Assembly (NCBI GenBank): GCA_020343455.1
Contig: CP070795.1
Coordinates: forward strand, 1,402,900 to 1,435,344
Reading direction: 5' to 3'
DNA length: 32,445 nucleotides
Source of the DNA: a candidate division WOR-3 bacterium
Lineage (GTDB): Bacteria > Hydrothermota > Tepidihabitantia > SM23-42
Within the stretch, counting starts at the first letter, position 1, and every line of letters starts with the position of its first letter. A program made the translations under genes and the position numbers. Under the pieces are notes generated by a model. It did not search any database and was not told the origin of the DNA. It saw only the letters and a program-made list of their open reading frames with translations. This document shows, piece by piece, positions 27,663-30,005 of this stretch.

Positions 27663-28255
27663 CTTCTTACGCACAATAGCAAGCCACTGCCGATCGGCAA
27701 GACCATGGCATATACTCGTTGATCGCTCAACGCGTCGTCGACCATCTCCTTCAGGATTTCCTTATGACTGAGAACATTGTCGGCAACGAGGATACCCCGC
27801 TGCACCATGTTGGGTACGATCTTATCGTAACATTCGGCGTAGCATTCCTTCTCGGCATCGAGGAAACAGAATGATACGTCCTTGTATGCCTGGAGATGAA
27901 GCAGGGCATCTCCCGGAACGAGATCGACGACATCGTCCACTCCGGCGACACGAAAAGTCTCACGGGCGAGTTCGATCTTCTTCGGCAGCACTTCGAAGGT
28001 GATCAATTTCCTGCCGAGTTCCCTGCATGCAACGGATATCCAGAGCGCCGAATAGCCGCCGCTCGTACCGATCTCAAGATATGTTCCCGCCGGTGCCATC
28101 ATCGCCATACAGGCGAGGAACTTCCCCGTATCCGGCGGAACCTGCCTGAGCCTCACGTCCGGCGGAACGTCACCAGAACGGTGTCTCCTATCGAGCTCCT
28201 CGAGAAACGCCATCCGCTTCTTCATCGGCACCGGTACATTGTCCAACAATCCCAT
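27659..28255 (-). CDS. O-methyltransferase (caffeoyl-CoA/Methyltransf_3-like)
   Basis: Motifs TGKFL, LEIGTSGGYSALW, TFE, GDA, FLDAEKECY, LVADNVLSH, PIGSGL. Confidence 0.9.
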   Translation of the reverse strand: MGLLDNVPVPMKKRMAFLEELDRRHRSGDVPPDVRLRQVPPDTGKFLACMAMMAPAGTYLEIGTSGGYSALWISVACRELGRKLITFEVLPKKIELARETFRVAGVDDVVDLVPGDALLHLQAYKDVSFCFLDAEKECYAECYDKIVPNMVQRGILVADNVLSHKEILKEMVDDALSDQRVYAMVLPIGSGLLLCVRR

Positions 28256-28279
28256 GGGGTCAAATCTCTACTTTGAACA
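28253..28279 (+). repeat. left inverted repeat (27 bp, perfect)
   Basis: CATGGGGTCAAATCTCTACTTTGAACA is the exact reverse complement of 29295-29321. Confidence 0.95.
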
Positions 28280-29318
28280 CAATTCGCTTATCATCTCATC
28301 AATATCCTGGAACTTATCTCTCAGTTGTTTGTCCGCGTTCATACGTAACTTCAGCCGGCGCCTGAGTTGATGAACACCACCATAATCGATACCGCCCACA
28401 TATCGCCCGATAGAGGCCTCGGTCATACCACAATAGCGGTGAAGAAACTCGGCGAGCAACCCCCGATGAGTCCCACCACCACCCCGTTTCACCATATTCT
28501 CCCGCGAAACACCGCAGGCTCTGCTAACACACGATAGAATCTCGTCCGGTGGCAGATACTCGGTTTGCATACCGCGATATGCAGGCTGATCACGTGATGA
28601 CCCTTTCTCGAGATATTCCGTCTTCACATACGCCACAAAATCATCGTCACCCAAAATTGTTTGGTGTCTGACATCCTGAAACAGATCACCAATACCATCA
28701 CTTATTCCGGCAGTGATGAAGCGCCTGTAACTTGCCCGACCTCCGATTGTCCCCAGAATCAGATCATACGAGACCAATTCGTTAACCTTCTGCTTGTCCA
28801 AATACCCGTGCAGACTGCTCCACAAATACTTCTGTAAGTACGCAAACCGGTCGTGGAAATTTGCGTCCTTGAATTTACTTCCGCCGATCGGATTCAGATG
28901 GACGTACCTTGACAATTCCAATAGATAGCTATCGGCATCGACCAAACAGGACTTATAACGCCCTTGGTATAGATGACCACAAGTACCGTAACGATAATGG
29001 AACCATCCCGTGTAGCATATGTTGAATCGCCGCATGAACTCACTTAGGTTACCCCTTTTCGTTTGCACAACGAGATGAAAGTGACTGCTCATCATTGCGT
29101 AAGCGTAGAGAACCACCTTGTATATCCTCATCGATTCACCCAGCAACGTCAAGAAATGGTGGCGATCGCCATCATCAACAAAGATGTTTCTGCGTGCGTT
29201 ACCACGGCACATGATGTGGTAATAGGCCCCCGGATATTGAATTCTCAAAGGTCTTGCCATCGCGATCTACGCCCCGGTCATCCATGGGTGTTGATGTTCA
29301 AAGTAGAGATTTGACCCC
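28256..29318 (-). mobile_element. about 1.06-kb IS-like element: RAYT/Y1 transposase gene bounded by inverted repeats
   Basis: The ends are GGGGTC...GACCCC with a 24-bp perfect core repeat, and AT flanks both sides. A single transposase ORF fills the element. Confidence 0.75.
28268..29260 (-). CDS. REP-associated-type tyrosine (HUH/Y1) transposase with C-terminal DnaA_C-like HTH
   Basis: Motifs MARPLRIQYPGAYYHIMCRGN, HUH in MSSHFHL, GHLYQGRYKS, catalytic Tyr in SRYVHLNP, YLWSS, ILGDDDF. The C-terminal helical HTH reads GMTEASIGRYVGG.DYGGV. Confidence 0.92.
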   Translation of the reverse strand: MARPLRIQYPGAYYHIMCRGNARRNIFVDDGDRHHFLTLLGESMRIYKVVLYAYAMMSSHFHLVVQTKRGNLSEFMRRFNICYTGWFHYRYGTCGHLYQGRYKSCLVDADSYLLELSRYVHLNPIGGSKFKDANFHDRFAYLQKYLWSSLHGYLDKQKVNELVSYDLILGTIGGRASYRRFITAGISDGIGDLFQDVRHQTILGDDDFVAYVKTEYLEKGSSRDQPAYRGMQTEYLPPDEILSCVSRACGVSRENMVKRGGGGTHRGLLAEFLHRYCGMTEASIGRYVGGIDYGGVHQLRRRLKLRMNADKQLRDKFQDIDEMISELCSK

Positions 29319-29321
29319 ATG
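29295..29321 (-). repeat. right inverted repeat (27 bp, perfect)
   Basis: The plus strand reads TGTTCAAAGTAGAGATTTGACCCCATG. Confidence 0.95.
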
Positions 29322-29324
29322 ATG

Positions 29325-30005
29325 TTACATAGCCAGAATCCGCTGCAGCAGCATACGGCGACGCGTGGCAATCTTATTCTTTGCCCGGTAACGGCCCAGA
29401 AGGCGCTCGCACCGCGGCGCTACATAGTGCAATTCATCGAGCGCCTGTTTACCATCGATCTCACTGAGCGCCAGCAATGTATAGTAAAACGGAAACCGCC
29501 TCCATTTCCCGGTGCCATCACGGTACTTCTTCAGGACTTTGAGCCCGGCACTGAGCCGCTCTCTCGACCTGTTCAACCCCCCCACCGCCAGGTGCCGCCA
29601 TAAGGCAGCCGTGCAGATACCGCAGCAATAAAAACCTCTCACTCGTGAACGTGTTTCGCAACTCGCCAACGCTTTGATCATTCCCCTGTTCGACCTTTTC
29701 AGGGCCTCGCGCGCCACTGGACTCCCATTCAAAAGAATCAAGGCACGGCTCGCTTCCTCGCCAAGGATGTGGCCTATGGCGGCACCGGACACCACCTTCT
29801 CGCCAGTGAAGAGCCTGATCCCTCTCCTGTAATCAAGGGAGGTTGGTGCGAACATGCCGCGATAAGAATCCTTCGAACCCTGCCGGCTCGAGATCCATCG
29901 AACTGCTTCAGTTCGCTCCCCTCTGGACAGCGATCTCCCCATGAAGAAGGCATCATTTAACGCATCGATGGTTGCGGAGAGGCTATTCGCGTGAATTACC
30001 TTCAT
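29325..30005 (-). CDS. hypothetical basic alpha-helical protein with CCxxC motif
   Basis: A 226-codon ORF with GGAGGT before ATG 30005. It contains GFYCCGIC and RDGTGKWRRFPFYYTLLALSE. Confidence 0.75.
   Translation of the reverse strand: MKVIHANSLSATIDALNDAFFMGRSLSRGERTEAVRWISSRQGSKDSYRGMFAPTSLDYRRGIRLFTGEKVVSGAAIGHILGEEASRALILLNGSPVAREALKRSNRGMIKALASCETRSRVRGFYCCGICTAALWRHLAVGGLNRSRERLSAGLKVLKKYRDGTGKWRRFPFYYTLLALSEIDGKQALDELHYVAPRCERLLGRYRAKNKIATRRRMLLQRILAM

Follow-up and report, generated by a model that had tools for sequence, protein, structure and literature searches.

The 32,445-nucleotide stretch of a candidate division WOR-3 genome analysed here (the window; GenBank assembly GCA_020343455.1, contig CP070795.1, forward-strand positions 1,402,900 to 1,435,344) contains, at positions 28253-29321, an intact TIRtron, that is, a RAYT-like transposase gene with long terminal inverted repeats (TIRs) on either side. 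This architecture is already known and not a new one, and its kind is experimentally untouched. We consider it probable that the gene encodes a RAYT-like HUH nuclease of the Y1 type, followed by a helical linker and a domain resembling DnaA domain IV, and that this protein acts on the TIRs by the mechanism proposed below. Comparative evidence supports a likely mobility of gene and repeats as one unit, as well as a role for the C-terminal helix-turn-helix (HTH). New in the present analysis are empty sites in four congeners, gene-less doublets of the repeat, the same design across phyla, a co-variation between the DnaA-like domain and the inner half of the repeat, and the absence of a target duplication.

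Repeat, gene and protein

A sequence-only reading of the window had described a perfect 27-bp inverted repeat with a 24-nt core around a single gene, and this description was correct. The arms (28253-28279 and 29295-29321, 27 nt each) are 100% complementary and separated by 1015 nt, and the 24-nt core was found exactly twice in the window (expected 0 from 100 shuffles). Only one open reading frame (ORF) lies between the arms, encoding 330 aa on the minus strand, and its 3' end with the final three codons and the stop is located inside the left arm. The unit measures 1,063 bp from GGGG to CCCC, or 1,065 bp if the adjoining T/A pair is counted. Each arm consists of an outer 12 nt, GGGGTCAAATCT, and a lineage-specific inner 12 nt. 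The dinucleotide AT is present immediately outside GGGG at both ends, as already noticed, and the outer CAT (28253-28255) doubles as the called start codon of an adjacent O-methyltransferase ORF. A palindrome search from 27800 to 29800, which included no dedicated search for GTAG/CGTC hairpins, gave nothing else notable.

Pfam Y1_Tnp matched residues 12-121 of the protein (E 1.5e-13), in agreement with the RAYT-type gene that had been proposed from its HFH and YVHLNP motifs, and both H60-F61-H62 and S117-R118-Y119-x-H-L-N were free of variation in an alignment of 50 homologues. The NCBIfam equivalog for REP-associated tyrosine transposases (NF047646, REP_Tyr_transpos) scored 41.2 bits, under its cut-off of 80. 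Foldseek searches with an AlphaFold2 model built on the 50-sequence alignment (mean pLDDT 85.9) led to the E. coli REP-associated tyrosine transposase 4er8_A as nearest structure for the N-terminal domain (E 9e-5, TMt 0.69), followed by the TnpA structures of IS608 and ISDra2 (2vic, 2a6m, 2xqc). For the C-terminal ~90 residues, DnaA domain IV was obtained (1j1v_A with TMt 0.87 and a root-mean-square deviation of 1.5 A over 93 columns; 3pvp_B with TMt 0.86). Pfam returned zero families for the C-terminal 200 aa alone, even at E 10. A profile search of PDB sequences gave DnaA as the top three matches of residues 234-327 (E 0.009-0.023), with residues 239-323 matching domain IV of 1j1v at E 0.009. 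The C-terminal HTH claimed from the sequence is thus real and, by profile and predicted model, folds like DnaA domain IV.

For a RAYT-like gene with long TIRs on both sides, the name TIRtron has been introduced, together with TIRYT for the encoded protein (Di Nocera, De Gregorio, Rocco 2013; PMC3733652), and the earlier suspicion that the architecture might not be wholly new was justified. According to the available passages of that paper, a GGGGWSAS motif is common to some TIRs, and TIR families are moderately abundant and occur as dimers or clusters. The available parts of a later survey (Quentin et al. 2018; PMC6006769) place 20/26 TIRYTs in TnpAY1 subclass 2.1 and assign a Bac_DnaA_C-, HTH_23- or HTH_28-like C-terminus to all TIRYTs of this subclass; only the GGGG end is compared there with the DnaA box TT[AT]TNCACA, a role of the C-terminal domain in repeat reading is doubted, and the abstract describes the non-IS200 subclasses as being without typical features of insertion sequences (IS). 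RAYT groups that behave either IS-like or housekeeping-like have been distinguished as well (passages of Bertels et al. 2017; PMC5581495). As far as these texts go, the element in the window agrees with a TIRtron in that long TIRs without relation to GTAG REPs enclose its RAYT-like Y1 HUH gene and in that further TIR copies are present elsewhere as dimers (four additional inverted pairs in the source genome), and it agrees with subclass 2.1 in its Bac_DnaA_C-like C-terminal extension, recognized here by profile and fold. Its outer end GGGGTCAA fits 7/8 positions of GGGGWSAS, the last base being A and not S. Nothing essential is different. The filled and empty sites reported below are absent from the passages of PMC3733652 and PMC6006769, and together with the co-variation they point in the opposite direction to the doubts on IS character and C-terminal role in the latter. 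A literature search found the terms TIRtron and TIRYT only in these two papers, neither of which tests the protein in the parts available, and a search from 2018 on for Y1 transposase, terminal inverted repeats, DnaA and HUH led to nothing newer on the subject.

Table 1. Coordinates of the TIRtron and its parts within the window.
Feature	Position	Strand	Remark
TIR, gene 5' end	29295..29318	-	24-nt core; perfect repeat extends to 29321
TIR, gene 3' end	28256..28279	+	24-nt core; perfect repeat starts 28253; holds C S K *
TIRYT gene	28268..29260	-	330 aa
Y1 HUH nuclease domain	28886..29227	-	residues 12-125; Pfam Y1_Tnp; fold nearest 4er8_A
HFH motif	29075-29083	-	H60-F61-H62
Catalytic Tyr119 (predicted) in SRYVHLNP	28904-28906	-	invariant in 50-sequence alignment
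Helical middle region	28550..28885	-	residues ~126-237; AlphaFold2 secondary structure; no Pfam match
DnaA-domain-IV-like DNA-binding domain (predicted)	28280..28549	-	residues ~238-327; profile and fold
Flanking T adjoining GGGG	28255..28255	.	partner A at 29319; true terminal pair or target preference

Empty sites and gene-less doublets

A 5-kb stretch around the unit was compared with the ten other genomes of the genus. In the nearest relative (G007), flank identity amounts to 87-91%, and 41 bp lie between the two neighbour genes, compared to 1,099 bp in the window. Both genes are likewise adjacent, without the unit, in G001, G010 and G006. From the repeat ends, the edges of the extra DNA are at most ~26 nt away on the left and ~9 nt on the right. 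Four congeners with adjacent neighbour genes and no unit indicate its entry as a unit, and since the closest relative and three outgroups are empty, a gain in this lineage is the parsimonious reading. Genome comparison therefore shows the unit to have been inserted, most parsimoniously within this lineage, where a ~14-nt spacer had separated two co-directional genes. This supports the suggestion of a mobile TIR-bounded HUH element made from the sequence: its syntenic site is empty in four congeners.

Public sequencing runs were examined as Logan contigs, in which rare forms cannot show. Two runs (records 2 and 11) matched the left junction with 0 differences, which confirms it. One contig of 2,061 nt carries the empty form; its differences at 11/134 and 36/574 letters indicate that it derives from a relative and not from an excision. 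Other candidate joints in these contigs turned out to be two of the gene-less doublets described below (A1 and A4).

Two observations concern the surroundings of the unit. The N-terminus of the O-methyltransferase (window 28226-28255) reads MGLLDNVPVP here and is MFHTIPSS-like in all four congeners; its true start may lie further in, since the called ATG abuts the repeat. A further genome, G004, has other extra DNA at the site of the unit (L207, G004:C1:1490388-1491572; ~984 bp with a 308-aa ORF) and ~3.2 kb of other extra DNA at the A1 site (L208, G004:C1:1997265-2000689), and both intergenic sites may take up insertions repeatedly.

When the 24-mer was searched in the source genome assembly (G000; 1.9 Mb in 206 pieces, 67.5% complete), 10 occurrences were detected, which form five inverted pairs: the gene-bearing unit and four gene-less doublets (A1-A4) of 86-93 bp each. 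Nine of the ten core arms are letter-identical. The core copies proposed for search by the sequence-only reading therefore exist, with many more units in relatives, and they are paired arms identical to the element ends and not dispersed repeats unrelated to them. An extra AGT is found on one arm in 3/4 doublets, and A1, A2 and A4 are placed exactly between the stop codons of convergent genes. A1 is also filled in G007, where the flanking genes are ~93% identical, the arms 45/48 and the interior ~24/42; two of the three arm differences are one and the same T>A substitution, present in each arm. G007 and G004 lack A2, which is filled in the more distant G006, with arms identical at 21/24 and 22/24 positions and an interior of likewise 38 nt that cannot be aligned. 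The A4 site is empty in G007 (flanks 94% identical). From A1 and A2 it follows that arms were held constant and complementary while interiors drift, and some doublets at least predate the insertion of the gene unit.

Next to the left arm of A1 (G000:C1:339938-339968), 14 nt are missing in G000 relative to G007, so that the upstream ORF runs into the arm and ends there, its last residues being repeat-encoded. At the A2 and A4 sites (G000:C1:540630-540641 and 1207520-1207527) the upstream stop is TGA in G000 and TAG in G007, perhaps by coincidence. At the position of A3 (G000:C1:1071332-1071422), G007 has ~80 unrelated bases instead (L079) with a G+C-rich stem followed by a T run, resembling an intrinsic terminator, and A3 may substitute for a terminator. 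The same genome also contains doublets of two other inner arm types, B and C (at G000:C1:929508-929636, 129 bp, and G000:C1:1762858-1762948, 91 bp); no cognate gene for either was found in the incomplete assembly, and the arm of type B equals that of a gene unit in G007 (L028).

A two-part repeat across the family

Protein searches led to 3,131 matches at E <= 1e-3 among 3,916 candidates; those with a name are annotated as putative transposase, RayT or candidate division WOR-3 proteins. Within the same order, 30/41 genomes have a match at E <= 1e-20, with up to 12 matches in one genome, and the best protein identity within the genus is ~54%. The 12-mer GGGGTCAAATCT is present in 37/41 same-order genomes with up to 42 copies per genome (0-1 for the reversed control). 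As fragmented assemblies collapse repeats, counts of identical units within one genome are not readable; 9 of 120 listed homologues are on contigs whose length (1,052-1,114 bp) is close to that of one element, which is only a hint. Among 36 loci in relatives, 33 are built as units of 1,031-1,081 bp with the same outer 12 nt, giving 34 units with the window's own. The ORF starts 38-72 nt from one end in 28/34 units and 100-241 nt in for the remaining six (five N-truncated ORFs and L014), and it stops 4-26 nt from the other end in 32/34, the exceptions being L024 (stop at the element end) and L090 (truncated ORF). Five of the units are decayed, with truncated ORFs. G008 harbours six units with a different inner arm in each, and the same inner arm types reappear across genera.

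The scan was extended to other phyla with one genome per species. It gave 556 relatives, of which the best 80 (Stahlbacteria, Desulfobacterales, Nitrospirota, Brocadia, Chlamydiota, Atribacterota and others) were examined; both arms at a distance of ~1.04-1.12 kb were detected at 58 of these best 80 loci. Because the outer 12 nt served to find the arms, their conservation in the resulting table of 92 units is partly by construction, and the share of loci having arm pairs is the independent result for the family design. The consensus arm over the 92 units is GGGGTCAAATCT-T-t-A-c-w-n-TTGACA-a, with a direct sub-repeat of period 7 (3.96/6 matches vs 2.2 in the null). These alignments show a bipartite repeat, composed of the constant outer GGGGTCAAATCT and an inner part that is lineage-specific and consists of two 7-nt direct sub-repeats. 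A stem of at least 5 bp within an arm is possible in 62/92 arms (expected 13.5), mostly from GTCAA/TTGAC; an intra-arm hairpin as in IS200 or REP elements was rejected, since this signal is inseparable from the TTGACA conservation and many arms have no stem. The same arms also delimit short elements of 83-333 bp in other genomes. Some of these share homologous interiors, present in either orientation, which indicates true miniature families. A 117-bp doublet (L117, G017:C240:18183-18299) combines arms of different inner types, one of them the type of the window, and could result from recombination between elements or from the independent arrival of single arms.

The flanks of the 34 units allowed a test of the 2-bp duplication that had been considered possible. 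AT/AT was found in 12/34 units and was the only matching pair of flanks, no dinucleotide other than AT was duplicated (0/19 units with a non-AT 5' flank), and no duplication longer than 2 nt was seen among the 34 units, so that a target duplication was rejected. T precedes GGGG in 30/34 units and A follows CCCC in 31/34. Among 271 distinct arms, 186 have T at -1 and 123 have A at -2, symmetrically on both strands. The alignment of flanks suggested earlier for ends and target therefore gave a T...A preference over the 34 units, and no precise target was obtained from the empty sites. The T...A pair (often AT...AT) is either an extension or true terminus of the repeat or a target preference of the T^A type.

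To relate repeat and protein, inner-arm identity (nt 13-26) was compared with protein identity over 29 full-length units by Spearman correlation. Residues 1-130 and 131-235 gave rho 0.15 and 0.16, respectively, residues 236-315, from which the arm-encoded tail is excluded, gave rho 0.40 (Mantel 0 of 2,000), and residues 276-315 gave rho 0.41. After regressing out the N-terminal domain, a rho of 0.36 remained for the DnaA-like domain. The exact inner arm of the window was also found in L012, a locus of another family, and C-terminal identity is highest there (0.45 vs 0.24-0.40 for the others). The co-variation points to the DnaA-like domain as the probable reader of the variable repeat half. 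Together with the duplex-binding fold of DnaA type, it lends support to the earlier idea that the HTH may bind the TIRs as double-stranded DNA.

Proposed mechanism and alternative explanations

To our knowledge, all HUH Y1 enzymes studied so far read single-strand hairpins, and the question raised by the TIRtron is how such an enzyme handles symmetric TIRs with the help of a DnaA-like, duplex-binding domain. We propose that this domain would dock on the inner repeat half as duplex DNA, which could be ordinary double-stranded DNA or a stem formed by pairing of the two arms of one displaced strand; from a displaced doublet strand, a 24-bp stem with a 38-45-nt loop would form readily. Docking would place the HUH/Tyr119 site at the constant outer end, where a nick may be introduced next to GGGG, at T|GGGG of both strands or, at the base of the stem, at T|G and C|A. 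Exit, rejoining of the flanks and re-entry would proceed without target duplication, as in IS200/IS605, and the same protein would move, or at least maintain, the short doublets as its non-autonomous partners.

The Y1 HUH fold and the lack of a target duplication are shared with IS200/IS605 elements such as IS608 and ISDra2. Those elements, however, have no TIRs, and their subterminal hairpins differ between the two ends of one strand, whereas the ends are symmetric here and an intra-arm stem of at least 5 bp is limited to 62/92 arms; their transposases have ~130-150 aa and no DNA-binding extension. IS200/IS605 elements insert 3' of a specific tetra- or pentanucleotide, and the flanks here show only a preference for T (-1, 186/271) and A (-2, 123/271), symmetric on both strands. 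With classical TIR-bounded IS and miniature inverted-repeat transposable elements, the TIRtron shares a ~1-kb unit with one ORF ending inside a TIR and short gene-less derivatives bounded by the same TIRs, but it has an HUH tyrosine nuclease in place of a DDE transposase and no target duplication.

A third comparison is with the REPtrons, reportedly a RAYT or TnpAREP gene together with REP, BIME or REPIN sequences and said to go back to work of Nunvar in 2010, Bertels & Rainey in 2011 and Ton-Hoang in 2012 (structure 4ER8). It leads to the strongest alternative, a domesticated system of REPIN/RAYT type with an immobile gene, in which the repeats are a dispersed family maintained in trans for a benefit to the host, for example as gene-end hairpins. 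The nuclease fold nearest to 4er8_A, a gene between inverted copies of a repeat whose inverted doublets are also scattered elsewhere, and doublets at gene ends that persist across species are common to both. Domestication would also suit the single gene copy in G000, the exact position of A1, A2 and A4 between convergent stop codons, the orthologous A1 of G000 and G007 with its well-kept arms (45/48) around a drifted interior (~24/42) and the same T>A in both arms, the terminator-like hairpin of G007 at the A3 site, and the name 'REP element-mobilizing transposase RayT' given to some homologues by JGI (Joint Genome Institute). It is, however, difficult to reconcile with the loss or gain of gene and both arms as one block: they are missing together at the syntenic site in G007, G001, G010 and G006, so the gene is not syntenic among congeners. 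Homologues of the same genus are only ~54% identical, up to six lineages with their own inner repeat each share one genome, and decayed copies exist. The arms begin with GGGG and have no GT[AG]G tag, there are only 10 of them in the 1.9-Mb G000 compared to hundreds in REPtrons, an extra DnaA-like domain is present, and the NCBIfam equivalog score of 41 bits falls short of 80. We therefore regard domestication as unlikely.

Still less probable in our judgement is an inactive relic, i.e. a unit that arrived once by transfer or transposition and is now stranded, next to doublets that are fossils of an older invasion kept as useful or harmless hairpins. The unrelated doublet interiors would fit this, as would the ages of A1 and A2, which are older than the split from G007 or G006 while the unit is younger, and the lack of a second copy and of junction reads in the public-run contigs. 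A relic would hardly be expected to retain an intact ORF with all invariant catalytic residues and 27-nt arms that are still perfectly complementary, and drift alone would not preserve 9/10 core arms as letter-identical. Finally, an operator/terminator pair that would regulate the gene between the arms and play no part in moving DNA can practically be dismissed: although in the family consensus the gene's upstream arm has TTGACA at positions 19-24, which we take to resemble a sigma-70 -35 box, these arms recur in gene-less pairs at four further loci and in the 83-333-bp elements of other genomes, and the indel formed by the block has edges that match the arms.

Several results weigh against an active TIRtron with the proposed mechanism. 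There is a single copy of the gene unit in G000, and neither a circle junction nor a back-joint, which had been proposed for search, was seen in the public-run contigs, where rare forms would not show. The junction bases at A2, A4 and the unit have diverged from G007 (TAG to TGA stops, small indels, a remodelled methyltransferase N-terminus), so that exact ends and target are unreadable from any empty site. The interiors of the four doublets (38-45 nt) have similarity neither to each other nor to sequences elsewhere in G000 (z <= 2.1), and as A1 is common to G007 and A2 to G006, these two doublets look long-kept and not like recent transposition products. G007, a 97%-complete assembly, retains a perfect A1 doublet, and no cognate gene was found in it. 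On the protein side, the link between DnaA-like domain and inner repeat is correlational among related, non-independent sequences, and the nearly invariant recognition-helix residues in the 50-sequence alignment would equally suit the constant repeat half.

Nevertheless, an intact TIRtron working in the proposed way remains the explanation we favour. A wider version of it, towards which we are more hesitant and which we put forward tentatively, is that TIRtrons may be a true autonomous IS family over many phyla, and the first whose single-strand-specific Y1 HUH nuclease is directed to a two-part terminal repeat by a duplex-binding domain of DnaA type. With a constant 12-nt module for cleavage and two 7-nt sub-repeats as a 'programmable' pair, up to six lineages could then coexist in one genome without cross-talk, and doublets would persist for long because of the host's use of their perfect hairpins at gene ends. 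If true, such a two-part repeat code would explain how many lineages share one genome and would offer a small programmable module for nicking and joining of single-strand DNA. The locus is a clean test set, with an intact gene, perfect arms, empty sites in congeners and four natural mini-substrates of 86-93 bp, and the family amounts to a natural 'swap experiment' between inner repeat halves and DNA-binding domains.

A second, distant Y1 gene is located in the same genome ~19 kb before the start of the window (G000:C1:1382734-1383728; ~308 aa, 29% identical). It is bounded by a perfect 34-nt inverted repeat with a G-rich outer end and two tandem TTGACAAT sub-repeats.

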